Notes: a model not told the origin generated them from the sequence alone. A stretch of 46,346 nucleotides of DNA from an uncultured bacterium (GCA_903864905.1 CAIPHR010000054.1:1-46346), one strand, 5' to 3'. Shown: positions 1 to 18,122, numbered from the stretch's first letter. Made by a program: numbers and translations.

Positions 1-268
1 ATACAGCTATCCAATTAGTAAATATATGATCTATATTTAGTCACGTTCTTATTTTATTTAATAAAAAATATATATAAAAACACTGCTTTTATAGGAAAGT
101 CAGGGTTATCATAGTTAATGAAAGTATCGGATTCTAATAATTCCAGATAGGAAAATATAGGAGTATCATACTGATAATGACTAGAATACTCACAAAGATC
201 ATTCCGACACTAAACACCTTTTTTGTTTTTTCATGAAATAACATGATAAATCTAGTATACTGTGTAGT

Positions 269-652
269 ATGAAAAACGGCAAACAGGGCACAATGAGAAA
301 ATTGCTTTCATCACCAATATCACTGATCATTGTTCTGTTTGCATTCGTAGTGCTTTGGAAAGCGAGTTCAAATATTTATGAGAAAGTTTTGATCAGCAGG
401 ACGAAACTCAATCAAGCTCAAGCCGAATTTTCTAAGCTAGAATTTCGCGAGAAAGATCTCGGTAGTCAAGTTAGTCGTCTTTCTACTGAACAGGGTATAG
501 ACGCTGAGATTCGATCCAAATACAAGGGTGTGAGACCTGGTGAGTTTGTAGCTGTTATCATCGGAGATAGTCAGGTAGCTTCTACAAGCAATGCTTCGTC
601 AACCGCTTCCGTAGGTTGGTTTGGGGCAGTGTTACAAAGATTTGGTTTTTGA
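269..652 (+). CDS. Septum formation initiator (FtsB/DivIC-like) protein
   Basis: N-terminal TM helix, coiled coil, then GIDAEIRSKYKGVRPGEFVAVI resembling the DivIC E..AR..LG...PGE motif. Confidence 0.65.
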   Translation: MKNGKQGTMRKLLSSPISLIIVLFAFVVLWKASSNIYEKVLISRTKLNQAQAEFSKLEFREKDLGSQVSRLSTEQGIDAEIRSKYKGVRPGEFVAVIIGDSQVASTSNASSTASVGWFGAVLQRFGF

Positions 653-666
653 TGTAAAATAAAAAT

Positions 667-700
667 GTCCTACTTCGCTCCTTGCGGAGCTACGAAGGAC
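667..700. repeat. REP-like hairpin upstream of tRNA-Gly
   Basis: gtcctacttcgc-tccttgcgga-gctacgaaggac; same flanking arms as hairpins at 19708, 21678 and 37859. Confidence 0.55.
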
Positions 701-703
701 CAA

Positions 704-774
704 GCGGGTATGGTTTAGTGGTAGAATGCGACCTTCCCAAGGTTGAGACGCGAGTTCGATTCTCGCTACCCGCA
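704..774 (+). tRNA. tRNA-Gly(CCC)
   Basis: Cloverleaf: GCGGGTA/TACCCGC acceptor stem, CGACC-TTCCCAA-GGTTG anticodon arm, GCGAG-TTCGATT-CTCGC T arm; CCA not encoded. Confidence 0.95.
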
Positions 775-947
775 CTATGATTCACGAAGACGCCTGAACG
801 GCGTCTGAGTGAAGCATCATAGAGACGAGGTGGCGAGAATCGAACGCCGGAACGTGCGAGCTCTAGCAAGAGCGAGCCGTGAGGCGGTGCCCAAGCCGAA
901 CGAGCGGGTAGCGAGTGAGAGCTGCGGGCGATTCTCGCTACCCGCAC
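757..947 (+). repeat. 19-bp direct repeat of the tRNA-Gly 3' end (757-775, 929-947) flanking a palindrome-rich mini-module
   Basis: cgattctcgctacccgcac occurs twice; inverted tRNA fragments at 833-845 and 904-915. Confidence 0.85.
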
Positions 948-2395
948 AGAGTTGTAAAATCAGCGTTTTTAGGTGTTTTTATCATCAGGTCGAAGGGACT
1001 TTTAAGGCTAGCTGTATAGATATTTTTCTCTTTGATCGAAAGGTTCCAACAGAGATTTTCTAGTACTTTACGTTTCTTGAAGTCATCACCGTCCAGAAAC
1101 TCATTTTTGGCTCTGCTTGCTTCTAGAAATACTTTTTTGGTCGGTTCCAACACGTTGACTGGTTGCTTGGATTTTGTTTCTTGGATCTGCTTTTCGATTG
1201 ATATTCTCTCGTTATGCAAAGCAAGAATTTTGGCATCGTATAAGTCCTTGGTAATTTGTTGAGCGAGGAAAGTATCGAGTAGCAGAGATTCTTTCGTCTT
1301 GAGCGAGTTTAGCTGGGTTTGGAGAGTGTTTAATATTTGCTCACTGTAAATATTATTGGAATGAGACTCCGACTTGGCAGCTTTGTACATCAATTCGATT
1401 TTTCTTTCTGAAAAAGCAATGCCATTCAGAATATCTGACACCTTGTCATACAGATAGATTTCTCTCATATAGCTTTTATGTTCATTGCAGCCTTCTCTAT
1501 TGCCGGTGCAGTAATAGTAATGATGGCCTTTCTTCAAAGAAGCCGTTAGAGCACAGCCGCAATTCTCGCACTTCATGAATCCACGGAGAGGGAAGAATAG
1601 TCGTTGTGGTCGTGGGTGTGATCGCCCGTTCATAACGTCTTGGGCTTTCTCGAATGTTTCCTTTGAGATGAGAGGTTGATGGATGCCTTGATAATATTTA
1701 CCTTCTCGCTCCATGATTCCTGTGTAAAAAATAGATGAGAGAATTCTTTGAATATAGCTTTTGTTTGCTATCTTGCCAGTTCTAGTTCTAAATCCTTCAT
1801 TGTAGAGAGTGTCCGATATTTCCTTGAAGCCATGAGAGCCGGTAAGATATAGCTCGAAAGCTCTTGGTATGTATTTTGCACGGGCAGGATCAATGATGAG
1901 AGTTCTGGTAGCCTTGTCGTTCAAGAATCCGAGAGGAGCACGATTTGGCCAACCTCCACGAGATAATTTTTCACGATTTCCTCTTTTGACATCGACGCTG
2001 AGATTCCTGCTGTATTGATTGGCCATGCCGAACTTTATAGCCATCAGCATGACATCATCACCTTGTTTGTGTACGCCTTCTGAAGTCTGTATTTCTTTAA
2101 TGACACCATTTTGAAGCATATCTATGATGAGTCCTCCGTCAATGAAGTTTCTGGCGAGACGGTCTAACTTCCAACAGACTATGCGATCAGCTTTACCTGA
2201 TTGAATAGTCTTCATCATCTCGTTGAATAATGGACGACCTGCTGATTTGGCGGACATGCTTTCCTTGAATGTTTTGGTGATGAGTAGGTTATGTTTTTCA
2301 GCAAGCGAAAGGGCTTCTCTTTCTTGTGAATCCAATGACAGAAGTTGTCTGTCTTCTGCTTCAGTAGATTTTCTGTAGTATGCGATGTATTTCAT
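938..2395 (-). CDS. Large serine recombinase (integrase 1), C-terminus truncated by the att junction
   Basis: Resolvase motifs YYRKS, ESMSAKSAGRPLF, KLDRLARN; recombinase domain; Zn-ribbon CENCG...YYYC...C; coiled coil; TAG stop lies in the tRNA-derived repeat. Confidence 0.93.
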   Translation of the reverse strand: MKYIAYYRKSTEAEDRQLLSLDSQEREALSLAEKHNLLITKTFKESMSAKSAGRPLFNEMMKTIQSGKADRIVCWKLDRLARNFIDGGLIIDMLQNGVIKEIQTSEGVHKQGDDVMLMAIKFGMANQYSRNLSVDVKRGNREKLSRGGWPNRAPLGFLNDKATRTLIIDPARAKYIPRAFELYLTGSHGFKEISDTLYNEGFRTRTGKIANKSYIQRILSSIFYTGIMEREGKYYQGIHQPLISKETFEKAQDVMNGRSHPRPQRLFFPLRGFMKCENCGCALTASLKKGHHYYYCTGNREGCNEHKSYMREIYLYDKVSDILNGIAFSERKIELMYKAAKSESHSNNIYSEQILNTLQTQLNSLKTKESLLLDTFLAQQITKDLYDAKILALHNERISIEKQIQETKSKQPVNVLEPTKKVFLEASRAKNEFLDGDDFKKRKVLENLCWNLSIKEKNIYTASLKSPFDLMIKTPKNADFTTLCG

Positions 2396-2406
2396 GATTG
2401 GTAATT

Positions 2407-3450
2407 TTATACCTGCTTCAGTGAATAATCAATCAAATCGAATCGAGAAGTTGGCGAAGGGATGATTAACTGCTCGATAATGTTCTGACTTGTCGGTGAT
2501 TTTTCAATGGAAATACCTATTCCAACTTGTTTCAAATCTTTTTTGTATCTATAAATCGTGCTCCTGTTCAAGCCTCCTCGCAGAAACATATTTTTCATCT
2601 CCTCATTGAAGTAATAATCCTTGTAGAATTGGTAAAGTCTGGTTGCTTTGGTCTTGGTGAAATTTTCGAATAGGATCTGCTTGATGTTTTCATCGGTCAT
2701 CGAGTTAGCGTTCACGTAAAAGAAGACTTTTTTCTCAAGAAAGTATTTAAGGACTTCAAATATCGTGTCGTCGTCGGTGACATCTTTCAGATATACCTTT
2801 TCGAGCTTGAAGAAATCTTGCAGATAGGTCTTCTTTAGATTGACTTCGAATCTGACTATTCGATCTGCCCACGCTTGCAAACTGTCCGCTCGATCAGGTT
2901 CAAGCTTTTTATAATCATGCGCCGTGAATTCAGCACCTTTGGCGTAAAACTTCACGGTATATGCACTTCCTTTGTACATGACTGAAGTATCGTAGGTGTA
3001 TTTCTTCTTTCTCGGATAATCAATTCTTCGTAGGAAGTCCATGGCGTACGTAGATTCATTTTGATTCTTGAAAAGCCAGTTGTAGCAAACATCAAGGCGA
3101 TATATTGGCCACAGGGAATAGTGAAGAAGTTTGTAATTCATATGGGTGCATAGTTCATCGTAAAGTCGCGCTATGATGTTTGGAAGCTCATGTGGGTAGA
3201 TCATTTCAACGTTGTTTCCTTTAGCGTATTTTGGGACGGAAAATTCAATGAAGAATCCTTGGGGAACATTTGTTGATTTTATAGCAACCGTCCTGTGATA
3301 CGAACCAAGCTCTATGTTGCTACTGAAGAATTCAAATTCCACCTTTCCGGTCTTTAGATCATCCTTACGAAACCGCATAAGGTTACCTTTTAACAGCTCA
3401 ATAAGGGTGCTGTCCTCCATCGGTATTAGAAATTTAATAGTGTCTATCAT
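2407..3450 (-). CDS. Phage/plasmid replication initiation protein, gene II/X (Rep_trans-like) family
   Basis: MIDTI start, RLDVCYN, VKFYAKGAE and RFEVNLK motifs, C-terminal HTH-like RSTIYRYKKDLKQVGI. Confidence 0.75.
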   Translation of the reverse strand: MIDTIKFLIPMEDSTLIELLKGNLMRFRKDDLKTGKVEFEFFSSNIELGSYHRTVAIKSTNVPQGFFIEFSVPKYAKGNNVEMIYPHELPNIIARLYDELCTHMNYKLLHYSLWPIYRLDVCYNWLFKNQNESTYAMDFLRRIDYPRKKKYTYDTSVMYKGSAYTVKFYAKGAEFTAHDYKKLEPDRADSLQAWADRIVRFEVNLKKTYLQDFFKLEKVYLKDVTDDDTIFEVLKYFLEKKVFFYVNANSMTDENIKQILFENFTKTKATRLYQFYKDYYFNEEMKNMFLRGGLNRSTIYRYKKDLKQVGIGISIEKSPTSQNIIEQLIIPSPTSRFDLIDYSLKQV

Positions 3451-3468
3451 GGTGCATATTGCAACGTA

Positions 3469-3567
3469 CCCTAGGTGTTACTAACACCTAGGGTTAAGTC
3501 ACCATGATTAGTGTCGACCGGAAGCGTCCCGCCCGCCGCTCTAGCGGTCGGGACGGGACGCCCTTCC
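3469..3567. other. Candidate double-strand origin hairpins of element 1
   Basis: Perfect 12-bp-arm palindrome ccctaggtgtta-c-taacacctaggg (3469-3493) and GC-rich hairpin 3520-3567 directly upstream of rep. Confidence 0.5.
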
Positions 3568-3707
3568 GCAAACGCCAAAAACAAACCAGCCATTGAGTGT
3601 AAATACTCATTAGCTTGTTCTCTGGACAATTCCAAACCATCTTCCTCTTTGAAGCATTGGATTGTCCGTTCTATTAAATTCTTGCTGAAGTTTTTCGATT
3701 CTTCCAT
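3471..3707 (-). CDS. Small conserved protein upstream of rep (paralogue of 13731-13946)
   Basis: FSKNLIERTIQCFKEEDGLELSREQANEYLHSMAGLFLAFA aligns with FSQNLIQDCIKSFKEENGVDISAETAIEYLDSFARLYLTFA. Confidence 0.75.
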   Translation of the reverse strand: MEESKNFSKNLIERTIQCFKEEDGLELSREQANEYLHSMAGLFLAFAEGRPVPTARAAGGTLPVDTNHGDLTLGVSNT

Positions 3708-3969
3708 ACCTTTTTAGGTACAGAAAACAGCTTGAAACAAAACAACATAAATAACCTCATAAATAGTGAGGTATAGTTGCTTTATTATCTAGCTGGAATC
3801 GGAGATCGGCGTGCCTTACCCGTTCCACAGATCTAGAACACCACGTAAATGCTGGTGTGCGACTGTGCGAGTTTCAAGGTGCGCCTGTACTGGTTACTAT
3901 TATCCTACTTTAGAAAACGAAGTCAATATTTACGATGTGTAAAAGTTATTTCAAAATAACAAAATGTGG

Positions 3970-4284
3970 CGCCTCCGCATTCTCCACCCCTTTCGAATCA
4001 CAGGAAAGTCATGCGCGGACGCTTGAGCGAGAGTACTTGGTCAGAAAGAGTTACGGGCGTGTAACCTCCGCCCTTATGACGACTGTGGCGCGCCTTTAAC
4101 GCGCATACCAGTATGGCTTCGCGCCTTTCCCCCCAATCGCTTCGCGATAGCGGGGGCACTATCGCCATACAGATTATGCGCTAGGCGCGAACAAGACGCG
4201 CAGTGACGGGCGGAGGTACCACGCCCTTATCTGCCAAGCGTCCCGCGCATCACTTTCCCGAAAGGGGTGGAGAATGCGGAGGCG
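3970..4284. other. 315-bp foldback (candidate single-strand origin or structured RNA)
   Basis: Perfect 26-bp terminal inverted repeat (3970-3995 / 4259-4284) with nested imperfect stems. Confidence 0.75.
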
Positions 4285-4311
4285 AAAAGATTATGATATT
4301 ATAGTTTCAAT

Positions 4312-5103
4312 ATGAAAAATATATCAGAAAATAGGAATTCCTACGACGCCAGATTTGCCGACACTCTCGGTGGTGAAGAATACGACGATTTGTTAATTGC
4401 CCTTGAGTTTTATGATGAATTTCAAGCAGAGACAGGTAAGGCTCTGAAAGAATATATTCAGGCTCGTTGTTCAAACCAAAAAGAGATTCGAGTATTGGAA
4501 GCAGGTCCCGGAACTGGAATAACGACATTTCAAATATTGAAGGCTGACCCTAGAGTGTTAGTAGTCTCTGTCGACAATGAAAAAAAGATGCTTGATGCTG
4601 TCAGAAATCGTTTCGCTGAAGTATCAGAATTGAAGGGAAGGGCCGATTTCATATTATCAGACATTCTTAAATTTCTAGAGTCATGTCCTGATGAAAGATT
4701 CGACGCGTTTGCGTCGGTTTACACTTTGCATAACTTTACGACAGATTTTCGAAAGAAGGTCATTGGGTTGATTGCAAAAAAACTCAAGAAAGGAGGTATA
4801 TTCATCAATGGAGACAAATATGCCGAGGCTGAAGATCCACACAAGAAAGATCTGGCTGCAGAGATTATGAATTATGACAAGTTTGACATTGCTGCTCTTA
4901 AGGCAGAAAAGGAAGGAAATATGAAACGAGCTGAACACTTGCGCACAATAAAGAAAGAATGGATCGCACACACATGGGAAGATGAGAAGAATAAAATCAC
5001 GGCTGAGGAACAGAATGAGATATTCAACGAGCTCGGCTTTATAGATGTGAAATGGATGAGGAGATTCGACCTTGTGACGACGGTGAGTGCGATCAAGAAG
5101 TAA
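4312..5103 (+). CDS. Class I SAM-dependent methyltransferase
   Basis: VLEAGPGTG motif I; FASVYTLHN; GGIFINGD. Confidence 0.85.
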   Translation: MKNISENRNSYDARFADTLGGEEYDDLLIALEFYDEFQAETGKALKEYIQARCSNQKEIRVLEAGPGTGITTFQILKADPRVLVVSVDNEKKMLDAVRNRFAEVSELKGRADFILSDILKFLESCPDERFDAFASVYTLHNFTTDFRKKVIGLIAKKLKKGGIFINGDKYAEAEDPHKKDLAAEIMNYDKFDIAALKAEKEGNMKRAEHLRTIKKEWIAHTWEDEKNKITAEEQNEIFNELGFIDVKWMRRFDLVTTVSAIKK

Positions 5104-5172
5104 AAGTTCCGATGTTTTAATCAAAAAATCCCGTCGCTGTCGACGGGACCGGGACGATACTAGAGTAAACGA

Positions 5173-5889
5173 TCATTCCGTGATGATTCGGGCCGAGAAC
5201 AACGCTTCCATGCGCCTGCGGAAGGTAAACCGGCAAGTCACATGGTTTAGTACGTCAACGTTCCGAAGCAAGTCGATCTGATCCTTCTCGGTGAAGCGGA
5301 TCTTCTCGTCCAGAAGATAGTGGACTGTCCACTTCAGCCGGTAAGCGGGATCGTCGTTGAAGACGTCGAAATGCAGAAGCTGATCGGCCAGGTCGGCGAG
5401 ATGCTTGGCTTCATTATTGCGAGCGTATTTATCGGCGTTGATGAACCAACCGCCGCGAATTCTGACGACGTTGCAGATGCCTTTGAATAGCATGCGCCTC
5501 TGCTCGGGTGTCAGATTGTGGATCATGAATGCGGAGACGACAGCATCATAATTGTTTGATATCGCCTTGCAGACGTATTCAGTCGCATCCGTATGCATCC
5601 ATGTTATGTTCTTGGAACGGACGCGTTTGCGAGCCTCGATAATCATCCGGCGCGAGGAATCGATTGCCACAAGATGACAGTTGGGCACATGCTTCATGAT
5701 CTTCTCAGTTGTGAGCCCCGTGCCACACCCGAGTTCCAATACTTGCGGATCCTTTATTCCCCTGAGCTTGGCTGCAAGGGTGGTTGCCAGCAGTTCCTCG
5801 ATTTCGTTGTACCATGGCATCGCTTGTTCAAAGCGATCGTAGTTTTTTCCCGCAAGGGGACCTGTTTTGAAGTCAGTTTGTTTGTTCAT
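5173..5889 (-). CDS. Class I SAM-dependent methyltransferase (paralogue of the convergent neighbour)
   Basis: VLELGCGTG, AVVSAFMIHN, GGWFINADKYA; start placed at MNKQ (5889). Confidence 0.85.
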   Translation of the reverse strand: MNKQTDFKTGPLAGKNYDRFEQAMPWYNEIEELLATTLAAKLRGIKDPQVLELGCGTGLTTEKIMKHVPNCHLVAIDSSRRMIIEARKRVRSKNITWMHTDATEYVCKAISNNYDAVVSAFMIHNLTPEQRRMLFKGICNVVRIRGGWFINADKYARNNEAKHLADLADQLLHFDVFNDDPAYRLKWTVHYLLDEKIRFTEKDQIDLLRNVDVLNHVTCRFTFRRRMEALFSARIITE

Positions 5890-6048
5890 TATCAATGTTT
5901 CTCCTTCATAATGAATAATACATGGATTTATGGTTGTGTCAATAAGTGAGTTGACAAGGAAGGTCAAATCTGCTATACTATAAGGAGAATTCGGAATAGG
6001 TCCAAAATACATTAACAATCAACCATTTGGAACAATTGGAGTCAAATT

Positions 6049-6840
6049 ATGAAGAGAATTCTGTGTCTTTTGGCGTGTCTGTCTGTAATCACTCTGCGCG
6101 CCTCTGACGACGCCCACTCCGACATTGAGACCGCCAAAATGGCGCCCAGTAGCGGATTGTCAGGTTTCGTTTCGACGGGTGTCGAGTCGAAGTACATCGG
6201 CCGTATCGGGGCCATCTTCTCCGATAAGCCGATCTCGGTCAACATTGTCGAGATTGACTACAAGGACTTCTACCTTGGCACATGGAATGCTACCGGCCTT
6301 ACGCCGCGCACCTATGGCACAACCTACGCCGATGAATGGGATGCCTACGGCGGTTGGGCTCACGACTTCGGTCCTGTGAAGGTCGACTTGTCCGGGTCTT
6401 ACTTCGGTCTTGCTCAACTCGATCAGTCGAAGGATGATATGTGGATCGCTGAGCAAGAAGTCAGCTTTCCAAAGTTTCCATTCGTCCAGCCCTATGTGCG
6501 GTCCAGGTACTTCGGCTCAGTTGCCGATGCTTGGAAGCCAGGTTGGTTCGTCTTCGGCGGTGTACGCAAGAGCATTGAGTTGGGTCATGGTGCGGCAAAG
6601 CGCCCATACATGATCAATCTCGATCTCTCGACAGCGTACTCCTTCGGAGCCCTGCACGATTATCACGGCTTTGTCTACGGCCGGCTCGGTGCCAGCCTCG
6701 ACATTCCGCTTTCAAAACGCTTCACCTTCAACCCGAACATGGTTTACCAAGTTCCGGTTCCAGGCGAACGCAGTGATCCAAATGGTTTTACCGACCGCAA
6801 CGAGTTTGTGTTCGGTGCAACACTCAAATGGATCTTTTGA
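6049..6840 (+). CDS. Secreted, outer-membrane beta-barrel-like protein
   Basis: Signal peptide, alternating aromatic/Gly strands, C-terminal FGATLKWIF ending in Phe. Confidence 0.55.
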   Translation: MKRILCLLACLSVITLRASDDAHSDIETAKMAPSSGLSGFVSTGVESKYIGRIGAIFSDKPISVNIVEIDYKDFYLGTWNATGLTPRTYGTTYADEWDAYGGWAHDFGPVKVDLSGSYFGLAQLDQSKDDMWIAEQEVSFPKFPFVQPYVRSRYFGSVADAWKPGWFVFGGVRKSIELGHGAAKRPYMINLDLSTAYSFGALHDYHGFVYGRLGASLDIPLSKRFTFNPNMVYQVPVPGERSDPNGFTDRNEFVFGATLKWIF

Positions 6841-6858
6841 CAGGTGTCAATTTACGCG

Positions 6859-6885
6859 AGGCGCATGAGCAATCATGCGCCTTTC
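6859..6885 (+). terminator. Intrinsic terminator
   Basis: aggcgcatga-gcaa-tcatgcgcct followed by T residues. Confidence 0.6.
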
Positions 6886-6963
6886 TGCATATATTAGTAG
6901 ATATTCTGTGCCCTTGATTTATTTCAAAAAAAATTATAAAATAGTCCCAATAATGTTCATTGG

Positions 6964-7182
6964 AATTCCTATTCTATAGTGCCTGCCGTGCAATACAAGG
7001 TATCACCTAAAGGGTCGTCGGTAGTAATGATAACCTGTTCACGCAGTTGTCGATAATGTCCGAGCTGCTATCGTTGAACGTTTACCCCCAACAAAGTCGA
7101 AAGACTTGAGCGGATAACTTCTTTAAGTGCACCGGACGCCAAGTGTATTGCAGCCTGAATCATGACCTATAGAATGGGAATT
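6964..7182 (+). ncRNA. Candidate structured ncRNA (~220 nt)
   Basis: 16-bp closing stem with one G-U pair, inner tgcaatac/gtattgca stem, GAAA-capped hairpin, TTGATT...TAAAAT promoter-like sequence upstream, no long ORF. Confidence 0.45.
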
Positions 7183-7209
7183 TTAGTGAGTGTTATTTAT
7201 TGCTATAGC

Positions 7210-7237
7210 GGTTCCAACTTCGTACCACAACCCGCAC
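7210..7237 (+). repeat. att-like junction site G1
   Basis: ggttccaacttcgtaccacaacccgcac. Confidence 0.9.
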
Positions 7238-7338
7238 AACCCAAGGCTGATGCTGAGGCATGGCTTAATTGAGCCATGTTACACATTTGGTAGGAGTCAA
7301 ATGTCGATTCTCGGATTCATCAAATACGAGATATGTTC

Positions 7339-9504
7339 CTACAGATCCAGAGATGCTGTATCCAAGTCTCCTTTTTGGTCTTCAATAACGAAATCGTTTT
7401 TGCGATAGTAAGCCGATCGTTTTTTCCACATTTTTTCGAGCACCGGTACCTTTTCATCTCGATAGTCATAGATCTTTTTGCTCCCACCATCTCTCCTAAT
7501 GCGACCGACATATTGAGATAGCTTTCCATGAAATGATACGGGGAATGCCAAAAATAGTACCTCGAGATTTTCAATGTCCGTACCTTCGCCAAGTATCTGT
7601 CCAGTTGTAATCAAGATGGAAAACCTGCCACTCTTTATCTTTTGCAAAGCAAACTTCTTTTGCCTCGCTGATAAATCTCCAGAAAAAGCTATAGTCTCAA
7701 AATCCTTTCTCAAATATGCCTGTAGCATTAACACATGCTCTTTTCTTTCTGTAAGGATAAGGCATTTTTTACCAGATCGCGCTTCGTGAACAACATCGGA
7801 AACAATAAGAGCATTTCTGCGACTATCATTTGATATGACTTTTGATACCAGGGGAAAATGACGGGGAGTCGTTCCGAAAGGTATTTCTATGTCTGTTTGG
7901 TGAACAATGACAACATCAATCGTTGCATTACTGCCTTCGTTCCGTCGTTCTGTAATCTCTTCTTTCGTTACCGTATGAATAATGGGTCCTAGATATGCCG
8001 AGATTAGCTTTTGATCGTTATATTTTCTATCTGGCGTTGCAGTCAGTCCGAACAGATATTTGCCTTTGAACTTTGAGATGACGCTTCTGAACATCTTTGC
8101 CGGCATGTGATGACACTCGTCAATGATTACTGTTCCGAATTTTTCAGATATTCTGCCCCAATCGTTCATTCGTGCGAGTGTTTGGACCATAGCAACAGTT
8201 ATGGGGAGTGCTTCATTTTTCTTCGTCGAACATATTTGACCAATCTTAGTCCTGGGAATACCAAGTGTTGATTCTATGCGGTCTAGCCACTGATCATATA
8301 TTTGTCTTCGGTGAGTGAGAATGATTGCAGGCTGTTTCTTTTGGGCTATAAGTCCGAGTCCCATAATCGTCTTTCCTGCTCCTGCGGGCGCGATTAGGAC
8401 TCCTTGGGTTTCTTTTGCGAAAGACTCCAACGCTTTCTCTTGGTATGGAAATAGTGTTGTCTTCAGCACAAATTTTACTGGTTCAGCTACGATACACTTA
8501 TCAATGACTGAGTAATGAATGCCCTTTGTATCTAACCACTTGCTCAAATCAAGTATAAATCCACGCGGTACAGAGACAAATTCACCCTCCACTTCGATAG
8601 TATTGATAAACCTCGGAGATCCATATATAGGCAAGCCTGCTCTTTCCTTAACAATATACTCGATGTTCAATAGATTGAGCTCCTCGCGCAAGAATGATAC
8701 AAGGGATGGCAAAAGTTCACCCCTGTAAATCTGGATGGTATTAGAGATTATGATATTTATCACACCTTTACCTTTCTTCAGTCGTTTTCTGATTCTCTTG
8801 TCGGCTGGAACAGGCGGGGGTGAAGCCAACTTTTCATGCAACTCATCCAATTCTTTTGAAGTCATCAGTCGTATGTCTTTCAAGAATGACCATTGATCGT
8901 CAATGACATGAAAATCATTTTCCGGATCAACGAATACACTATTGCCTTCCTTTCTCGATGTACCCTGAAGTGGCAGAGCGATAAGATTGCCAAGACCTTT
9001 ACCTGATAGATAATCCTGGTTAGGGAACAGGCGGTCAAAGCTCTCGTTTTTCTCAAATTCACCAATAGCATTTGCTTCTCGTAGAAGCGCGATAAAGATT
9101 TTCCGACTTTTGTAAGCGGAATAAGGTTCAGAGAAAAATAGCCATGCATGTGCGCCATTACCAGAGCGAGATCTCTCAACCGCAATCGGTACGTCATATT
9201 TTTTGCAAACAGCACAAAACGCACGCACTGATTCTTTCCAGCCCTCGCCGTCGAAATCGGCCGCGATGAAATGTGAAGCGTTGTCTTGTGACAACGGATA
9301 TAGTCCCAAAACGACACTTCCTAATAAGTGCTTCTCTGCCCATTCGGCCGTAAATGGTTCGTATGCTTTCTTCCTATAATCTGTATACACGGGAGCATAT
9401 CCAGAGATCGAGCCGTCCCATTTCTGCCATCTACGCGCAATAACGTCGCTTCTTCCTTTGAATCGAGTTAGAAATATATTCACCCTTTCTTCCCGAGAAA
9501 TCAT
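7339..9504 (-). CDS. Primase-like N-terminal domain fused to SF2 (DEAD/DEAH, type III restriction-like) helicase
   Basis: DFD...ERSRSGNGAHAWLFF and GLGNLIALPLQG (AEP/TOTE-like); Walker A APAGAGKT, DECHH, GLTATP, QYVGRIRR. Confidence 0.85.
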   Translation of the reverse strand: MISREERVNIFLTRFKGRSDVIARRWQKWDGSISGYAPVYTDYRKKAYEPFTAEWAEKHLLGSVVLGLYPLSQDNASHFIAADFDGEGWKESVRAFCAVCKKYDVPIAVERSRSGNGAHAWLFFSEPYSAYKSRKIFIALLREANAIGEFEKNESFDRLFPNQDYLSGKGLGNLIALPLQGTSRKEGNSVFVDPENDFHVIDDQWSFLKDIRLMTSKELDELHEKLASPPPVPADKRIRKRLKKGKGVINIIISNTIQIYRGELLPSLVSFLREELNLLNIEYIVKERAGLPIYGSPRFINTIEVEGEFVSVPRGFILDLSKWLDTKGIHYSVIDKCIVAEPVKFVLKTTLFPYQEKALESFAKETQGVLIAPAGAGKTIMGLGLIAQKKQPAIILTHRRQIYDQWLDRIESTLGIPRTKIGQICSTKKNEALPITVAMVQTLARMNDWGRISEKFGTVIIDECHHMPAKMFRSVISKFKGKYLFGLTATPDRKYNDQKLISAYLGPIIHTVTKEEITERRNEGSNATIDVVIVHQTDIEIPFGTTPRHFPLVSKVISNDSRRNALIVSDVVHEARSGKKCLILTERKEHVLMLQAYLRKDFETIAFSGDLSARQKKFALQKIKSGRFSILITTGQILGEGTDIENLEVLFLAFPVSFHGKLSQYVGRIRRDGGSKKIYDYRDEKVPVLEKMWKKRSAYYRKNDFVIEDQKGDLDTASLDL

Positions 9505-9560
9505 AAGCGGATATTACCCCTTACTTCAATTCATTACAAGAACATGAATGTGTAATCAAA

Positions 9561-10616
9561 TTACTTCGACTTTACATACCTCGTACTCCTTCCTAGACCA
9601 ATTCGTTCGATCAGTTTCAGCGATACGAGACGCGAGAAAGCTTGTTTAATAGTAACCTGCGGGATATGAACTAACCTAGCACTTACATCCATCACAGAGA
9701 GTGATTCCGTGCCATCAAAAAGCGTATATATCTCCGTCTGTCGTGGAGAAAGCAACTTGGTCGGATCATCGTTATCCATCAATTCTTTTGCCTTGGTTGC
9801 TTGTATCAGTAAAGCGTCAAGAAAGAAATTGACCCACGCGGTTAGATCTTCATTTTCTGTTTTATGAAGTTTTTGAGTCCGTCTCAAAGATGAATAGTAG
9901 TCATCCTTTCTTTCTTCGATGATTTCTTCTAATGAAACATATGGGGTGTATTCGTATCCAGCTTGCAGAAGCAACAGATTAGTGAGCGCACGAGAAAGTC
10001 GTCCGTTACCATCTGAAAATGGATGAATAGCGAGAAATTCAAAGATGAAATTAGCGATGATAAGCAACGGGTGCAATTTTTTTTCAGATATTGCTATGTT
10101 CGTCCAGTAGATGACATCGTCCATCTCTTTCTTTGTCAGCCATGCTTCGGTTGGTTTGAATATCACTGCTTGCTCACCTTGTCTATTCATAGCAACAACA
10201 AGATTTTCTCTAGTTTTGTATTTTCCTTTATGGAGATCATCCTTCCTTGAATAATGCAGTAGGATCTCATGGAATGAAAGGACAGTGGACTCAGAGAGTT
10301 TAAACTTTTTCCAGTTGTCGAACACTCTACCCAATAGATTGGCATATCCGGCCACTTCTTCTTCATCGCGATTCTCGGGAGGGTTTGACTTAAATGCGTT
10401 CAAAAAACGCTCAACTTCCTCATCTGTCATATTTGCACCCTCGATACGTGTAGAAGCACCCGTACTAGTAATAATGACGGATTTCTTTAGTCGACTGAGT
10501 ATCTGTGGATTGATATTCAAACCTCCACGCCAAAGACCCTTGAGCTCATCAATTTTGGTGATCTTTCCGAGGATTTCGGAAGTAAGTGGTATTCTTTTTT
10601 CATATCTTTCTTTCAT
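9561..10616 (-). CDS. Fic family protein with C-terminal winged helix
   Basis: HPFSDGNGRLSR Fic motif; STRIEG inhibitory-helix-like motif. Confidence 0.92.
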   Translation of the reverse strand: MKERYEKRIPLTSEILGKITKIDELKGLWRGGLNINPQILSRLKKSVIITSTGASTRIEGANMTDEEVERFLNAFKSNPPENRDEEEVAGYANLLGRVFDNWKKFKLSESTVLSFHEILLHYSRKDDLHKGKYKTRENLVVAMNRQGEQAVIFKPTEAWLTKKEMDDVIYWTNIAISEKKLHPLLIIANFIFEFLAIHPFSDGNGRLSRALTNLLLLQAGYEYTPYVSLEEIIEERKDDYYSSLRRTQKLHKTENEDLTAWVNFFLDALLIQATKAKELMDNDDPTKLLSPRQTEIYTLFDGTESLSVMDVSARLVHIPQVTIKQAFSRLVSLKLIERIGLGRSTRYVKSK

Positions 10617-10710
10617 AATATATTCATATAAATGTTATATATCCGATTGTATACGATTATATCCGAAAAGTCAAGCTTACTAGATTAATGCCATTAGTGA
10701 TGCTAATGCA

Positions 10711-10737
10711 GTTCCAACTTCGTACCACAACCCGCAC
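10711..10737 (+). repeat. att-like junction site G2
   Basis: gttccaacttcgtaccacaacccgcac. Confidence 0.9.
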
Positions 10738-10819
10738 AATTATATATGGCGTTCAGTTATACGAATATGTCGTACAACTGAGAGTTGTAAATTCATCGAT
10801 TTTGTGCAATAATTTGGAC

Positions 10820-11107
10820 ATGTCAATAGCAGAAATACAGAAAAAAATACATCCAGTTCTCAAGTCATATGGCGTTACCTATGCGGGTATTTTTGGCTCT
10901 ATCTCACGTGGTGAGGATCGACCAGACAGTGATGTTGATATCCTAGTTAAGCTCGGTAAACCGATGGGAATGTTTTCTTATATGAAATTGATCGGAGCTA
11001 TTGAAGGTCTCTTGGGGCGTAAAGTTGACATGGTTACAGAGCAAAGCTTGAGTAAATTTGTTCGACCATATGTAATGCCAGAATTAAAGACTATTTATGA
11101 AGGATGA
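10820..11107 (+). CDS. MNT nucleotidyltransferase antitoxin (copy 1)
   Basis: FGSISRGEDRPDSDVDILV; LLGRKVDMVT; start placed at MSIAE. Confidence 0.9.
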   Translation: MSIAEIQKKIHPVLKSYGVTYAGIFGSISRGEDRPDSDVDILVKLGKPMGMFSYMKLIGAIEGLLGRKVDMVTEQSLSKFVRPYVMPELKTIYEG

Positions 11108-11420
11108 GAAGGTCTACATAGAACAGATGTTGGATTCGGTCTCGAAGATCGAAGCGTTCACTCATGGCATGAAGAGGGAAGATTTCATGAATGATTCGAA
11201 AACGCAAAGTGCCGTCATCATGCAGTTGACTGTGATAGGTGAATTGGTCAAGAAGCTTTCTTCGAAGACAAAGGAGTCGAGTGATATACCATGGAAAGAG
11301 ATTGCCGGATTTAGAGATCGAGCGATTCATCACTATTTTGGAATGGATCTGAATGTGATCTGGGATACTGTGGTCTTAGATGTACCAGTTCTGAAGGTGG
11401 CACTTATGAAGTTGTCATAG
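11097..11420 (+). CDS. HEPN/DUF86 RNase toxin (copy 1)
   Basis: IPWKEIAGFRDRAIHHY (RxxxxH); overlaps the MNT gene. Confidence 0.9.
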   Translation: MKDEKVYIEQMLDSVSKIEAFTHGMKREDFMNDSKTQSAVIMQLTVIGELVKKLSSKTKESSDIPWKEIAGFRDRAIHHYFGMDLNVIWDTVVLDVPVLKVALMKLS

Positions 11421-12899
11421 GGTGGTTCCAACTTCGTACCACAACCCGCACTGAGTAAAAATATCACCATTTTTTGGAGCTTTTGCCAGTATGTCATAAG
11501 GACTTCTGTAGCTCACCTGAGCGATTTTTCTGTCTTTGACTGAAAGGTTCCAAAGTAATTCAGAGACGATATTTCGTTTTTCTTCATCCGGTGCCTTCAA
11601 GTAATCTGCAATGGCTCTACTGCCTTGCATAAATATCTTTTTGATCGGTTCCAAGGTAGAAACGGCCTGTTTGGATTTCATGTCAGCGATCTGTTTTTCC
11701 AGAGAAATGCGGTTGTTATGAATTTCCAAGATCTTAACATCGTAAATTTCTTTTGAGATTTGATCAGCTAGAAATGTATCGAGTAACTTGGATTCTTTCG
11801 TCTTGAGCGATTCTAGCTGTTTTACAAGGTTGTCTAATGAGCGATTGAGATATTCGGAATCGGCATCGATCCTTTCTTTGGCGGCACGATACATCAGATC
11901 GATTTTCTGTTCGCTGAATTGAAGCGGGCTTAATATTTCAGCTACTTTTTCATCGAGGTAAGTTTCTCGCATATATTTGGTATGTTCCTGACAGTTTCCC
12001 TTGGCATTGGTGCAGTAATAATACTGATGACCTTTTTTGAGTGATGCCGTTAATGAGCAACCGCAATTTTCGCATTTCAAGAATCCTCGTAATGGGAAGA
12101 AGTGAGTTTGTGGCCTTGGATGCAGTTTGCCTTGTAAGACCAGTTGAGCTTTGTCGAATAGGTCCTTGCTAATAAGTGGCTCATGGTTGCCCGGATAGTA
12201 TTTACCATCGCGGAGCATGAGACCGGAATAGAATGGATTGGTTATGATCCTGTGAATGTGACCACGATAGATTTTCTTGCCACAAGTGTTTCGCAGACCT
12301 TCGTTGTAGAGAATATTGGCGATCTCTGTGAAGCCGTGAATGCCGGCGGCGTATAGTTCAAACATGCGTAGAACGTATTTTGATCTTGAATGGTCGATTG
12401 TAATTGAGGCGGTAGCCTTGTCGTTTAGATATCCGAATGGGGCATGATTAGGCCAGCCACCTTTTTCTAGTTTGGCTCGATTGCCACGCTTTACATTCAC
12501 ACTCAGATCTCTGCTGAATTGATTAGCCATACCAAATTGCATAGCCATAATAAAGGCGCTTTCGTTTGGTAAATGTGTGGCTTCATAAGTCCGGATCTCT
12601 TTGATGACGCCTTTCTGAAGCATATCCATGATGAGTCCACCGTCTAGGAAATTACGAGCTAAACGATCTAGCTTCCAACAGAGAATTGCATCTGCTTTTC
12701 CGGTTGTAATCATTTGAATGACTTCATTGAATATGGGACGACCGGCTTCTTTGGCTGTACGGCTTTCTTTGAAGACTTTGATGACGTTCAGATTGGACTT
12801 GCCGGCTATATCGAGTAGCTCTTTTTCCTGTGAATCGAGTGACAGTACTTGCTTGTCTTCTGAATCGGTTGATTTTCTGCAGTAGAGAATATATTTCAT
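11415..12899 (-). CDS. Large serine recombinase (integrase 2)
   Basis: YCRKS, KLDRLARN, CENCG Zn ribbon; close paralogue of integrase 1; reads through site G3. Confidence 0.93.
   Translation of the reverse strand: MKYILYCRKSTDSEDKQVLSLDSQEKELLDIAGKSNLNVIKVFKESRTAKEAGRPIFNEVIQMITTGKADAILCWKLDRLARNFLDGGLIMDMLQKGVIKEIRTYEATHLPNESAFIMAMQFGMANQFSRDLSVNVKRGNRAKLEKGGWPNHAPFGYLNDKATASITIDHSRSKYVLRMFELYAAGIHGFTEIANILYNEGLRNTCGKKIYRGHIHRIITNPFYSGLMLRDGKYYPGNHEPLISKDLFDKAQLVLQGKLHPRPQTHFFPLRGFLKCENCGCSLTASLKKGHQYYYCTNAKGNCQEHTKYMRETYLDEKVAEILSPLQFSEQKIDLMYRAAKERIDADSEYLNRSLDNLVKQLESLKTKESKLLDTFLADQISKEIYDVKILEIHNNRISLEKQIADMKSKQAVSTLEPIKKIFMQGSRAIADYLKAPDEEKRNIVSELLWNLSVKDRKIAQVSYRSPYDILAKAPKNGDIFTQCGLWYEVGTTL
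11424..11451 (+). repeat. att-like junction site G3 (encodes the C-terminus of integrase 2)
   Basis: ggttccaacttcgtaccacaacccgcac, read as CGLWYEVGT on the minus strand. Confidence 0.92.
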
Positions 12900-12986
12900 G
12901 AATTTAATTAGTTATGGTTGATAATGAGATTAAAGTTGGTGACATTTTACTCCTCGAAAATGTTTTGCACAAATTTTGTAATATTT

Positions 12987-13724
12987 TCATGGTGATTTCT
13001 GATATGTTTTCTTGGTAATCTCTCCCATGAATATGCTTGGTCGTGTCCATTCTTTGATCGGCTTTTCTTTTTCATAACGGCGAGCCAATTCTTTTGCCAT
13101 ATCACCCCGGATGACGATCTCCTTTGGAAAGCTGTGCGATATCCGTAGCATTCTCATGGCGTTGAAGAGGATTTGGTTGCTCCCTTTGGTAATGTACTTG
13201 CTGATGTAATATGCCAAGCGTCCAGATCCATTAGTTTTTGTCGCATCCATAAAGCCCTCTCCCCATAATTTAGCGAGGGTACGATCTTTTCGTTCATCTC
13301 CATGCGAAATACACCGTTTACCTTGGCGCGTATCACCGAGAGACAACGGCACGTTAAAGAGTAAGCCATGAAAGTGGATCCTTCCTCTTGGGGAGAGTTC
13401 GGGAATAAATAATGACTGCGCAAGAGGATATTTAGCTCGCAACCGCACTTGGAAACTGCGTAAGGAATTATTTGCATAGGAGGCATCTGATGCGTCGCCG
13501 TGAAAGGTGAGTGTGACCAGAAGCGGGCATCCATACTCTTCAAGAGCAGAAAACACCCTCCGCACACATATCTGCCTTGTCCTTCGAATATTATCGGGTC
13601 GCCTAAGGCCGTATATGGGATTCCTTCGTCTCGCAAAGTATACGCGCACTTTGCGCGGGTGCGGTTCCTTCTCAATCTTGGTGATTTCGACGATTTCTCC
13701 ATATTTCTTGTAAATGAAGTGCAT
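12987..13724 (-). CDS. HUH-type rolling-circle replication initiator
   Basis: Motif I LVTLTF, motif II RGRIHFHGLL, W-G-x-G-F, motif III YYISKYITK. Confidence 0.85.
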   Translation of the reverse strand: MHFIYKKYGEIVEITKIEKEPHPRKVRVYFARRRNPIYGLRRPDNIRRTRQICVRRVFSALEEYGCPLLVTLTFHGDASDASYANNSLRSFQVRLRAKYPLAQSLFIPELSPRGRIHFHGLLFNVPLSLGDTRQGKRCISHGDERKDRTLAKLWGEGFMDATKTNGSGRLAYYISKYITKGSNQILFNAMRMLRISHSFPKEIVIRGDMAKELARRYEKEKPIKEWTRPSIFMGEITKKTYQKSP

Positions 13725-13730
13725 AGTGAG

Positions 13731-13946
13731 TTACTTACAACTATGAGGGGATATCAAGTCAGGCGAAGCGCCGCCCGGAGCTTCGCATACCGGGACGGCG
13801 CCTTCTATCCTCGCAAAGGTTAAATACAACCGAGCGAATGAGTCCAGATATTCAATTGCCGTTTCAGCAGAAATGTCGACCCCATTTTCCTCTTTGAAGC
13901 TTTTGATGCAGTCTTGTATTAAGTTTTGCGAAAAAGTTAATGGCAT
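13731..13946 (-). CDS. Small conserved protein upstream of rep
   Basis: Homologous to 3471-3707 and in the same position. Confidence 0.75.
   Translation of the reverse strand: MPLTFSQNLIQDCIKSFKEENGVDISAETAIEYLDSFARLYLTFARIEGAVPVCEAPGGASPDLISPHSCK
13751..13805 (-). other. Candidate double-strand origin of element 2
   Basis: ACTTGATAT on the minus strand (13751-13759) matches the phiX174/pC194-type CTTGATA nick motif; adjacent GC hairpin 13765-13805. Confidence 0.6.
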
Positions 13947-14013
13947 GAAAAAACCCGATATTGGGTCGGGTTCATTATCATTCCTTGGCGTTACGGGATT
14001 GTACGGGTACGGC

Positions 14014-14928
14014 TTACAGATACTCTTTGTTTACATGCGCATAACCGGTTTTACCGGATTTAATGAACAAGAAATTGCTCACGCCAGCCTGTTTGCTCAC
14101 TTTGGTGTTAACATCGTTGCAGGCTCTGTACATTGACCGCCAACCTTTGTCATCATTCTGGAACTTATCGTTCAGAATATCAGTGTAAAACGATTGGGCG
14201 TCCAAGCCTTCGTTATTTCCAAAGATATATTCAAGGACGAAATGAGAATTTGGCTTATCGTTCTTTTGCTTTATTTTCACTACTTTGCCACCGATCTTCA
14301 ATTCACTTCTATCTGAGTCAAAATCATCGCGATTAACCTTTAACTTTGCTTCATTGGCAGGCTGCATCGTTTCAGTAGATTCCAATTCAATCGGAGCTTT
14401 CAAAACTAAAGATTCCGGTGGCTTCGTCATGTTATCAAGCAATCCCTTAACCAAAGCCGTGTGCAATTTTTCCATGTAATCGGCAACGTCTCCCATTGAA
14501 AATGAATATCGAACTCTAATCCAGACCACCTTGAGAAATTGCCATGCAGTGCCATCGTTGCTGTACGCCAGAGCTTGACCGGTCGTACAATCTTCTGAGG
14601 AATGATCTGGTGATTCCCAATACACTTTCATGGGAGTAAATATGTTTCGCTTGAGAATGTCGTAACAGCCGGAAAGCGAATGCTTCTTGATCTTGTATAC
14701 CACTTTTTCCTTGTCTTTTGGAGCCAACTTACCTTCCCAATCAATGATCATTATCCTACCTTCAACATCCTTCTTGTCCTTGTCGATTAGATCTTGAACA
14801 TCCTTCCGGTTATCAATTAGATCGAAGTATTCATAAACCTTCTTAAAAGAGCTGTAAAGTCTCTTGTTATTTTTGACTTCAAGAAATTCATTGTATTTTA
14901 GATTAAGCTGTGAGATCACGAGATCCAT
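14014..14928 (-). CDS. Hypothetical protein, possible C-terminal winged-helix DNA-binding domain
   Basis: 304-aa ORF; C-terminal WRSMYRACNDVNTKV...G.A.VN pattern. Confidence 0.55.
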   Translation of the reverse strand: MDLVISQLNLKYNEFLEVKNNKRLYSSFKKVYEYFDLIDNRKDVQDLIDKDKKDVEGRIMIIDWEGKLAPKDKEKVVYKIKKHSLSGCYDILKRNIFTPMKVYWESPDHSSEDCTTGQALAYSNDGTAWQFLKVVWIRVRYSFSMGDVADYMEKLHTALVKGLLDNMTKPPESLVLKAPIELESTETMQPANEAKLKVNRDDFDSDRSELKIGGKVVKIKQKNDKPNSHFVLEYIFGNNEGLDAQSFYTDILNDKFQNDDKGWRSMYRACNDVNTKVSKQAGVSNFLFIKSGKTGYAHVNKEYL

Positions 14929-14977
14929 ACCAATAGTTTACCATTATCAAAACAGCAGTAAAAACGAGTGAAAGTGG

Positions 14978-15273
14978 CGCCACCCACCCACTGCCTTTTC
15001 CGTGCAGGAATGCGTGAGTCGCGACTAACCTTTGTGGCTAAAGAATGACTATGGAAGCGGTGATGTCGCTTCAAAGAGAGCCTGTGGCGCGCCTTTCGCA
15101 CACATCCGTATGTTTCCGCGCATTCCCCCAGTTGCTAGTCGCAACAGGGGTGCGCTCTCAACATACCGATGTGTGCGAGGCGCGAATTACACTCCGTGAG
15201 TGAAGCGACACACACCGCTTCCTCTGCGCGACATCACGCATACCTGCACTCCAAAGTCAGTCGGAGGGTGGCG
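14978..15273. other. 296-bp foldback homologous to 3970-4284
   Basis: Nested inverted repeats; shares gtggcgcc...ggcgaa ends and internal ctgtggcgcgccttt. Confidence 0.75.
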
Positions 15274-15336
15274 AAGAATCTCTGTTGCACATCGCCCACA
15301 TAAATCCGTTTTTCTGTTATAATAATAAGTACTTTT

Positions 15337-16113: not shown

Positions 16114-16214
16114 GTAAATACTATTCGGATGTCATGCAAAGATCTAGGGTTGTTGAGATTTATGACGATGTTATAATATGCATGAATTATTATTCACTTA
16201 TAATTTGTAAATAT

Positions 16215-16640
16215 ATGCACAATGAGCAAATACCAAAACAAGCGGATAAATATGAGAAAAAAGTAGAGGTAGTATCAGAAGGAGGAGGAGAAAAAGGACC
16301 AGAGGTTCAGAATAAATCTTTTTTTGTTAATGGCTGTGAGCTAAATGCAAAGGTCTCTGTTGATCCTAATAATAATATTTCTTTCGCGGAAGATATTGAC
16401 ATGGGAGGGGATGTTCCAAACTTTCTAAGTTCTTTTATGGATGAATTCGACTTGAGAGTGTTATTTGATGCTGGAATACTTAAGAAAGGCAATCCTGCGA
16501 GTTGTAAAAGTAAATATGGTCTGGGTGGAGATGGTTATAGCGGCTACATACTTATTAATAAGGATGAGATTAATGATGCAGTTAAAAGTGGAAAGTTAAA
16601 GATTAGGCTGGATGAGGATGGTAACATAGAGGTTTTGTAA
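16215..16640 (+). CDS. Hypothetical protein
   Basis: Open frame after TGTTATAAT; start uncertain. Confidence 0.45.
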   Translation: MHNEQIPKQADKYEKKVEVVSEGGGEKGPEVQNKSFFVNGCELNAKVSVDPNNNISFAEDIDMGGDVPNFLSSFMDEFDLRVLFDAGILKKGNPASCKSKYGLGGDGYSGYILINKDEINDAVKSGKLKIRLDEDGNIEVL

Positions 16641-18116: not shown

Positions 18117-18122
18117 CGTTCT

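Follow-up and report, generated by a model that had tools for sequence, protein, structure and literature searches.

The stretch of DNA analysed here (the window) comprises 46,346 nt from an uncultured bacterium (GCA_903864905.1 CAIPHR010000054.1:1-46346), and all coordinates are counted from its first letter. The host genome, of the Patescibacteria type, is 1.04 Mb in 95 contigs and 97% complete. At the locus a tandem stack of seven small units is inserted 3' of a tRNA-Gly(CCC) gene, from position 776 to approximately 22594 (Table 1). Integrase genes are present in only two of the seven units, units 1 and 4, the other five being without one. Each of these two (948-7237 and 11452-19709) forms a self-contained integrative replicon with a large serine recombinase, here named Int1 and Int2 respectively, and a rolling-circle replication protein (Rep). 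In this study, we describe the attachment (att) site of these elements, which lies in the last codons of the integrase gene, and consider whether the resulting change of the integrase C-terminus upon integration is a by-product of a compact arrangement or has a function of its own. The sites, the logic of the junctions, the enzyme family and the occurrence of the same junction at 11 kinds of tRNA are supported by the sequences.

Core repeats and arms of the stack

The last eight bases of tRNA-Gly(CCC), 768-775, form a core repeat, ACCCGCAC, and the T-loop motif GTTCGA of the tRNA lies 22 nt from the core end. Seven copies of the core were found, all on the plus strand, at 768, 940, 7230, 10730, 11444, 19702 and 21672, against 0.30 expected from shuffles, and none of 100 shuffles reached seven. 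The 18-mer GATTCTCGCTACCCGCAC occurs at 758 and 930 (two matches against 0.01 expected). The five other core sites (7230, 10730, 11444, 19702 and 21672) are preceded by a different left arm common to them, (G)GTTCCAACTTCGTACCACA. To the right of the core all sites differ, except that 19702 and 21672 have 48 nt in common, and the divergence of the flanks starts immediately on either side of the core. Left of the core there is tRNA or arm, and right of it integrase or other DNA, which places the exchange inside the core.

Units 1 to 5 end on the right with arm and core, and unit 0 with the 18-nt tRNA copy and core. The right end of unit 6 is a degenerate arm from 22567 that has lost the core, and the chromosomal glutaredoxin gene is next. 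Units 5 and 6 both begin with a 48-nt hairpin flank, the same as that found after empty tRNA-Gly sites in relatives; in two such relatives (G002 and G004) the tRNA-Gly gene is followed by the hairpin and then by GTGCAGGCAC, and the same sequence lies 3' of the cores at 19702 and 21672.

The Gly-type arm was found in 15 of 93 genomes of the genus, and its orientation relative to the core was always one way. A second type of arm, that of the paralogue on contig C82 described below, was present in just one further genome among the 92 searched besides the window's own. For three elements at tRNA-Gln, core repeats of at least 7 nt did not reveal any far ends, and a motif search of the Gln-type elements yielded two arms, in genome G068 only. 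These belong to the tRNA-Gln(TTG) element L156 (G068:C2) of a genus relative, which, numbered in tRNA-first orientation, has identical arms, GGTTCCAACATCGTACCACGCAGC, at 4951 and 6769, separated by 1.8 kb; stacks thus occur at a tRNA other than tRNA-Gly as well. A motif scan for outer arms in the 110 loci from L043 onward (L123 and L001-L042 excluded) gave one spurious match, inside an integrase gene.

Int1 and Int2 are large serine recombinases

Int1 and Int2 are large serine recombinases that are 59% identical to each other. The resolvase domain (PF00239) was detected at 1.6e-19 in Int1 and 2.1e-18 in Int2, and PF07508 and PF13408 exceeded the cut-off in both. Residues R8 and S10, together with Cys276, 279, 281, 296 and 303, were invariant in an alignment of 71 sequences. 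The AlphaFold2 model of Int2 built on this alignment had a mean predicted local distance difference test (pLDDT) score of 83, with long helices (330-448) between the zinc-ribbon strands. Its best Foldseek matches were full-length serine-integrase/att complexes: 9dxh_A (1.1e-22), Bxb1 9iu2_A (6.3e-16), PhiC31 9tep_A (1.7e-15) and 4kis_B (1.3e-12). The TM-scores were low (0.24-0.48) because the domain arrangement differs.

Integrase 3' ends in the window

Int1 ends ...DFTTLCG, and its TAG stop is the complement of 938-940, within the 18-nt tRNA copy at 930-947, which supplies both Gly485 and the stop. The preliminary description had attributed this stop to a tRNA-derived repeat, which was correct; the supplier is, however, a duplicate lying 154 nt (776-929) beyond the tRNA and not the tRNA itself. 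As that description had also stated, Int2 reads through the site at 11444 and ends ...DIFTQCGLWYEVGTTL (CGLWYEVGTTL-stop), and Int1 would end in CGLWYEVGTAIAINNTH (minus strand at site 7230), 15 residues longer, if unit 1 were closed on itself. The short TTL end of the Int2 tail arises because Int2 reads into the arm of unit 3, and unit 3 is without a stretch, described below, that unit 6 keeps between its HepT gene and its arm.

Recurrence of the integrase/tRNA junction

Thirteen matches to Int2 were found in the host genome. Three full-length paralogues run straight into an antisense tRNA 3' end, those of tRNA-Gln(CTG) on contig C41, tRNA-Leu(GAG) on C7 and tRNA-Leu(TAG) on C6. For a fourth, 33% identical paralogue (C65), a tRNA-Gln(TTG) gene is located approximately 120 nt past the matched end. 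The paralogue on C82 reads into arm-type sequence, not tRNA, and ends ...STLCLYCTKLEPIFKTK before its stop. Int2 matches sit at the ends of six contigs (C82, C41, C6, C13, C63 and C93), so the elements probably break the assembly.

The survey of other genomes used one genome per species; 561 relatives were found and 80 loci kept, 77 of them holding the integrase 3' end. The hosts of the kept loci are mostly Patescibacteria-type metagenome-assembled genomes, and ten are filed under other names, for example Gammaproteobacteria and Bdellovibrionales. An antisense tRNA 3' end lies at most 12 nt from integrase codon 484 in 56 of the 77 loci, and in 50 of these 56 the offset is exactly -3. A tRNA is found 30-165 nt further on in 5/77 and none was called within 200 nt in 16/77. 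The 56 target tRNAs are of 11 kinds (Gln 19, Ser 18, Leu 3, Lys 3, Gly 3, Ile 3, Trp 2, Tyr 2, Arg 1, Pro 1 and Asp 1). Within the genus, integrase homologues at E <= 1e-60 are present in 45/93 genomes, with up to eight per genome. As judged from these sequences, the integrase/tRNA junction layout recurs across a large clade. The earlier claim that the att site lies in the last integrase codons and that integration changes the C-terminus, giving CG-stop in the tRNA-proximal copy and CGLWYEVGTTL-stop in the internal one, is thus right, and applies more widely than had been proposed.

These data also bear on the explanation that the 26-28-nt arm and core belong to some other repeat system (the att site of a tyrosine recombinase, an integron-like site or a repetitive extragenic palindromic (REP) element) which the integrase gene overlaps by coincidence. 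Five units without an integrase would fit it, as would the 18-nt direct repeat around the 154-nt insert, which resembles a tyrosine-integrase signature. We nevertheless regard it as very improbable, given that the junction falls at the same base of codon 483/484 in 50/77 loci and at 11 kinds of tRNA, and that the arm keeps one orientation relative to the core in all 15 genomes of the genus that have it. Moreover, Pfam scans of 54 island open reading frames (ORFs) found no tyrosine recombinase (Phage_integrase); these were 20 of a first set of 23 proteins, the three others being chromosomal, and 34 of the 47 other ORFs with 60 aa or more, while 13 short ORFs overlapping known genes lay outside the scan. 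The stack also departs from the classical tyrosine-integrase island pattern, as its far ends carry the 8-bp core only and no tRNA fragment, and the 18-nt repeat is limited to the 154-nt insert.

Position of the strand exchange

Near-identical integrases at different tRNAs narrow the crossover. The integrase of G005, 86% identical to Int1, is located at tRNA-Lys(TTT), with a Gly-type arm and ACCCGCAC core approximately 4 kb off, in matching orientation on the same contig. Integrases 96% identical to Int2 are found at tRNA-Leu(TAA) in other genomes (L043, L045 and L129), at a tRNA-Leu(TAA)/tRNA-Cys pair that is unoccupied in the window (39725-40038). The Lys, Leu and Gly junctions have only (C)GCAC in common, corresponding to the acceptor-strand end, the discriminator A and an additional C. 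Because the junctions of close relatives at these three tRNAs share only that, the crossover is placed in GCAC, and the sequence comparison narrows the probable exchange to (C)GCAC, the third base of codon 483 plus Cys484. The preliminary description had put the crossover within the ACCCGCAC core; the logic of the sequences agrees and confines it from 8 bp to the last four or five bases. On this basis, the 42 tRNA genes of the host genome include 16 potential targets, those ending in GCAC.

In every target examined the T-loop box GTTCGA lies 22 nt from the GCAC end. In the Gly-type arm the sequence GTTCCA is 27 nt out, 5 bp further than in the tRNA, the assignment of this motif being a guess, and in the Gln-type element of G068 the arm motif is 23 nt out against 22 in the tRNA, only 1 bp further. 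For the Listeria integrase, the consulted part of one account places the zinc-domain motif of attB 5 bp closer to the centre than that of attP (PMC3783163).

The 154-nt mini-insert

The mini-insert between tRNA-Gly and the integrase element lies directly 3' of the tRNA GCAC and is followed by an 18-nt copy of the 3' end of that tRNA, an arrangement seen both at tRNA-Gly in the window and at tRNA-Leu(GAG) in locus L072. Its first 45 nt or so form a hairpin whose inner stem is altered on both sides between copies, and inverted copies of the tRNA 3' end are present within it. Homologues were found in the same genome (C13:12416-12564), at L072:3962-4122 (between tRNA-Leu(GAG) and the integrase, 73% identical over 115 nt), in L016 from 1572 and in G018 after tRNA-Gly. 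An Rfam scan of 600-1100 returned the tRNA only and no family for the mini-insert, which may represent a non-autonomous element, an RNA or a processing signal.

The insert raises the possibility that Int1 is a stranded relic, in which the 154 nt have parted the junction from the tRNA and removed the T-loop half of the tRNA-side arm, so that unit 1 cannot excise and the short tail has no regulatory meaning. Upstream of the 18-nt copy there is GCGGGC where the tRNA has GAGTTC, and similar inserts separate integrase and tRNA in L069 and L072 (gaps of 162 and 165 nt). At the orthologous locus in the genus relative G006, the integrase adjoins the tRNA directly. That copy, however, also ends in CG (...KTMCG-stop), and the truncation of Int1 is therefore not caused by the insert. 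The 485-aa ORF of Int1 is intact, no domain or alignment-invariant residue is missing from it, and the relic explanation presumes that excision needs the outer arm. We consider it improbable.

Other genes of the stack

The features of the locus are listed in Table 1. The AEP-TOTE primase-helicase fusion of unit 2 is 721 aa long (Pfam, 6.7e-73) and, going by its sequence, its pairing with the Fic protein looks conflict-related or replicon-like; an arm-plus-core site flanks the pair on either side. The nucleotidyltransferase/HepT pairs of units 3 and 6 (10798-11418 and 21783-22403) are 92% identical across 621 nt by BLASTN, and each has its own right-end arm. Approximately 160 nt between HepT and arm, kept in unit 6, are missing from the paralogous unit 3. 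In unit 5 (19823-20304) the GIY-YIG nuclease gene (8.8e-18) overlaps a C-terminal fragment of an IS3-type transposase on the opposite strand (rve_2, 3.4e-21), and from its sequence this overlap is a decayed insertion sequence within the stack.

Table 1 Features of the tRNA-Gly(CCC) locus and the seven-unit stack
Feature	Position	Strand	Description and evidence
tRNA-Gly(CCC)	704-775	+	ARAGORN; Rfam tRNA 704-774, 68.3 bits
Unit 0	776-947		154-nt GC-rich insert and 18-nt tRNA copy
Mini-insert	776-929		154 nt, GC-rich (61%); between tRNA-Gly and integrase element
18-nt direct copy of tRNA 3' end	930-947	+	includes core 940-947
Int1	938-2395	-	large serine recombinase, 485 aa; Pfam Resolvase, Recombinase and Zn_ribbon_recom above cut-off
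Unit 1	948-7237		Int1, rolling-circle Rep, two methyltransferases
Rolling-circle replication initiator, unit 1	2407-3450	-	Phage_CRI / G2P N-terminal domain, Pfam 2.3e-17; PHROG 702 replication protein, 1.8e-29
Two S-adenosylmethionine (SAM)-dependent methyltransferase genes, unit 1 cargo	4312-5103, 5173-6018	+, -	Pfam
Unit 1 right end, arm and core	7183-7237 (arm and core 7210-7237 on +)	- (reading)	sequence
Unit 2	7238-10737		AEP-TOTE primase-helicase, Fic
Unit 2 cargo	7339-10616	-	AEP-TOTE primase-helicase fusion 7339-9504; Fic-domain protein 9561-10616; Pfam
Unit 2 right end, arm and core	10710-10737	+	
Unit 3	10738-11451	+	nucleotidyltransferase / HepT pair, HepT at 11097-11420; Pfam, BLASTN
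Int2	11415-12899	-	large serine recombinase, 494 aa; same three Pfam domains above cut-off
Unit 3 right end, arm and core	11424-11451	+	read through by Int2
Unit 4	11452-19709		Int2, Rep, Bro-N, other genes
Rolling-circle replication protein, unit 4	12987-13724	-	REP_ORF2-G2P, Pfam 2e-11; PHROG 3419
Unit 4 right end, arm and core	19682-19709	+	
Unit 5	19710-21679	+	GIY-YIG gene, IS3-type transposase fragment, 301-aa ORF
Unit 5 right end, arm and core	21652-21679	+	
Unit 6	21680-22594	+	second nucleotidyltransferase / HepT pair at 21739-22092 and 22112-22405; degenerate arm

Searches for excised or rearranged forms

Four lake-water runs from a single study, in which the region is present only as low-depth Logan contigs, showed neither a circle junction nor an empty site, and viral contigs gave no arm matches. 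One contig of run X4 tracks unit 1 to 7239, two bases beyond the core, where it passes into unrelated DNA; this single contig fits site-specific reshuffling and suggests other unit arrangements in the population. A joint 19757>10798 in public reads was rejected as a rearrangement, as the second nucleotidyltransferase/HepT copy accounts for it.

A motif resembling GTACCCCATAAAGTGGAC is found repeatedly beside tRNA ends and element junctions of the host genome and a relative (G000:C13 around 12400, C56 around 200, C85 around 37950, a loose end of run X4 at window 4203, and L156 around 6800). Possibly it marks the terminus of a further repeat or mobile element.

Comparison with known systems

Int1 and Int2 resemble the large serine integrases (Listeria A118/LI, Bxb1, PhiC31 and SPbeta) in having a resolvase domain, a recombinase domain and a zinc ribbon with an inserted coiled coil, in their short att sites with a small common core, and in that the best structural matches are the DNA complexes of such enzymes. 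They differ in that tRNA 3' ends are targeted, the site overlaps the last codons of the integrase itself, near-identical enzymes occur at different tRNAs, and tandem stacks are formed. Serine integrases make a 2-bp staggered cut and need a helper factor for excision. In the part consulted, a 2014 account describes serine integrases as not known to target tRNA genes and treats tRNA targeting as a property of tyrosine integrases (PMC4383910). Our literature searches found no description of a tRNA-targeting serine-integrase system of this kind, which does not disprove the existence of one. The accessible portion of the inovirus paper of Roux et al. mentions Candidate Phyla Radiation (CPR) hosts and serine recombinases and does not mention this system.

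By analogy, the closest precedents would be phage Mx8 and the archaeal SSV-type integrases. The Mx8 Int is a tyrosine recombinase in which a substantial C-terminal part is replaced. According to the part of the source available, its attP lies inside the integrase coding sequence, and integration makes a new 3' end that turns IntP into IntX, changing the specificity without inactivation (PMC6070905). The elements described here likewise have the att site within the integrase gene and gain a new 3' end, but only the residues after 484 change. The SSV-type 'suicidal' integrases are tyrosine recombinases that also have the att site within the integrase gene, in a compact module, as far as the portion consulted shows (PMC8371274). 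Unlike the SSV-type gene, which is split and disrupted by integration, the ORF here stays whole and only its tail changes.

The preliminary description had drawn an analogy to mycobacteriophage BPs, where, reportedly from the work of Broussard et al. in 2013, attP lies inside the repressor gene and the free form carries a degradation tag, the C-termini of the two forms being different. The analogy is apt in form, as attP lies inside a gene in both cases. It differs as to the gene, since BPs alters a repressor and its integrase is a tyrosine recombinase, whereas the gene here is a serine integrase itself with a tag role that is only putative, and Mx8 is the closer case. In streptococcal accretion, too, tandem arrays at one site mix autonomous units with att-only units, the integrase-less cis-mobilizable elements (CIMEs). 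Unlike the stack described here, those arrays use tyrosine integrases with identical attL and attR cores.

Proposed mechanism and role of the tail

We propose an element-side att site that extends across the 3' end of the integrase gene. Its P' half would be formed by the last nine or so codons (PKNxDxxT-L/Q-C), and its other half, the P arm GGTTCCAACTTCGTACCACA, would lie at the opposite end of the element. Upon recombination with the 3' end of a tRNA gene (T-arm, acceptor strand and GCAC), the tRNA would be restored, and the residues past Cys484 would be replaced by an antisense reading of that tRNA, which for tRNA-Gly(CCC) gives G-stop. The overlap may be mainly a compact arrangement, tolerated because the extreme C-terminus is presumably an unstructured appendage. 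The tail swap would then be a by-product of the overlap with at most a modulating effect, and units without an integrase would be carried along or moved in trans. With moderate confidence, we incline to this reading of the tail swap as a by-product that is tolerated within a compact att/int overlap.

Several results favour it over an integration-dependent switch, in which the arm-encoded tail (LWYEVGT plus about eight hydrophobic residues, often Ala-ended) would act as a degradation or autoinhibition signal whose loss on integration changes the stability, activity or direction of the enzyme. Integrated integrases end in antisense-tRNA peptides, the last residue falling anywhere between 2 residues before codon 483 and 104 after it (median 19), with typical tails such as ...LLRDLDSNQ... 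at tRNA-Gln and ...GEDSN... at tRNA-Leu; enzymes with such arbitrary tails are still full-length ORFs. Free-type tails also vary across the family, for example LYCTKLEPIFKTK and TFSINVRTFFAANPEG, and none is common to all. In the Gly type the arm DNA is translated as WYEVGT, but the reading is one base out of phase in the C82 type (LYCTKLEP...) and the Gln type of G068 (LRGTMLEP..., hand translation). Because the frame of the arm differs between subtypes, it is the DNA site and not the peptide that is conserved across them. In the AlphaFold2 model the tail is predicted to be disordered, with pLDDT below 50 for Int2 residues 485-494.

The tail frame was analysed in 23 distinct Gly-type arms (window, 5; genus, 17; metagenome, 1). 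A codon-substitution test did not separate it from a control frame, the ratio of nonsynonymous to synonymous polymorphism (pN/pS) over tail codons 10-16 being 0.70 in the tail frame, 0.67 in the +1 control frame and 1.01 in the +2 frame. Searches for a natural full-length integrase with the complete tail of 16-17 residues found none. A word-index protein search with residues 430-494 gave four matches, none with a Gly-type tail, and a metagenome scan for the arm-core-P' junction returned one locus (L123), a decayed integrase stump still reading ...KTLCGLWYEVGTLLALNNISRT-stop.

Other observations on the same 23 arms weigh against the by-product reading. Only one stop was found in the 161 tail-frame codons (codons 10-16), against 10.3 in within-sequence shuffles, and none of 5000 shuffles was as low, although this test overstates the significance, as the arms are related. 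The five other frames, including those of the opposite strand, hold 10-26 stops over the same stretch. In 20 of the 23 arms no stop occurs up to and including codon 16 (shuffles, 13.2), and 15 of the 23 have their first stop at codon 17 or 18. The frame stays open past the invariant 26-nt arm, in a region where the mean pairwise identity is only 0.47. Such an open frame hints at translation of the tail and at maintenance of a constant length, for which a pure by-product would have no need. Eight of the 23 tails end in Ala after a hydrophobic stretch. As to the proposed mechanism more broadly, the half-site motifs are assigned only tentatively, GTTC-N-A being displaced outward by 5 bp in the Gly-type arm and by 1 bp in the Gln-type arm, and neither an excised circle nor an empty site appeared in the runs searched.

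The host genome encodes ClpP and a transfer-messenger RNA (tmRNA) whose tag ends ...DFAFALV. This tmRNA, on G000:C26, has the tag AKSTVSPYFGQKDFAFALV, with a Leu-Val end instead of the usual Ala-Ala, and is flagged by ARAGORN as 'tag not identified'. The tail may thus be a degradation signal, and Mx8 offers a precedent for altered function upon integration. The regulatory claim of the preliminary description is accordingly a reasonable hypothesis with mixed support, and we hold the switch to be possible, although less probable than the by-product reading.

The formation of tandem stacks is a further difficulty for the mechanism proposed above. Recombination with a hybrid site is not expected of serine integrases without a helper factor. 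Canonical serine integrases, as described in the consulted part of the same account, recombine only attP with attB (PMC3783163), and this rule does not explain the stack. Insertion beside the tRNA could be repeated if the right half of the target were of little importance.

Significance

A bolder and, taken as a whole, doubtful picture can be drawn from these data. In it, the Patescibacteria clade would recognise the universal T-arm and exchange strands at the discriminator GCAC, as the first lineage of serine integrases specialised for tRNA. An Ala-ended hydrophobic tail on the enzyme of the free circle would mark it for turnover or autoinhibition, and the integrated form, tail-less or junk-tailed, would have a different stability or direction, so that a crossover two codons before the stop would serve as state sensing. 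With the right half of the target of little consequence, the tRNA-proximal junction would stay a target, and defence and toxin-antitoxin cassettes would pile up behind it in an integron-like manner.

The clade of serine integrases described here, with at least 561 relatives, extends tRNA targeting beyond the tyrosine integrases to enzymes of another family at 11 kinds of tRNA. Serine integrases are valued as tools for their short sites and independence of host factors, and enzymes that read a nearly universal feature of tRNAs and tolerate any tail would be a useful start. If the tail swap is regulatory, integration-dependent control would extend from tyrosine to serine recombinases, and the window already holds tailed and untailed forms of the integrase for comparison, as a natural experiment. 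For the organisms themselves, the stack shows genomes of approximately 1 Mb in uncultured bacteria collecting replicons, defence genes and toxin-antitoxin cassettes behind their tRNA genes.

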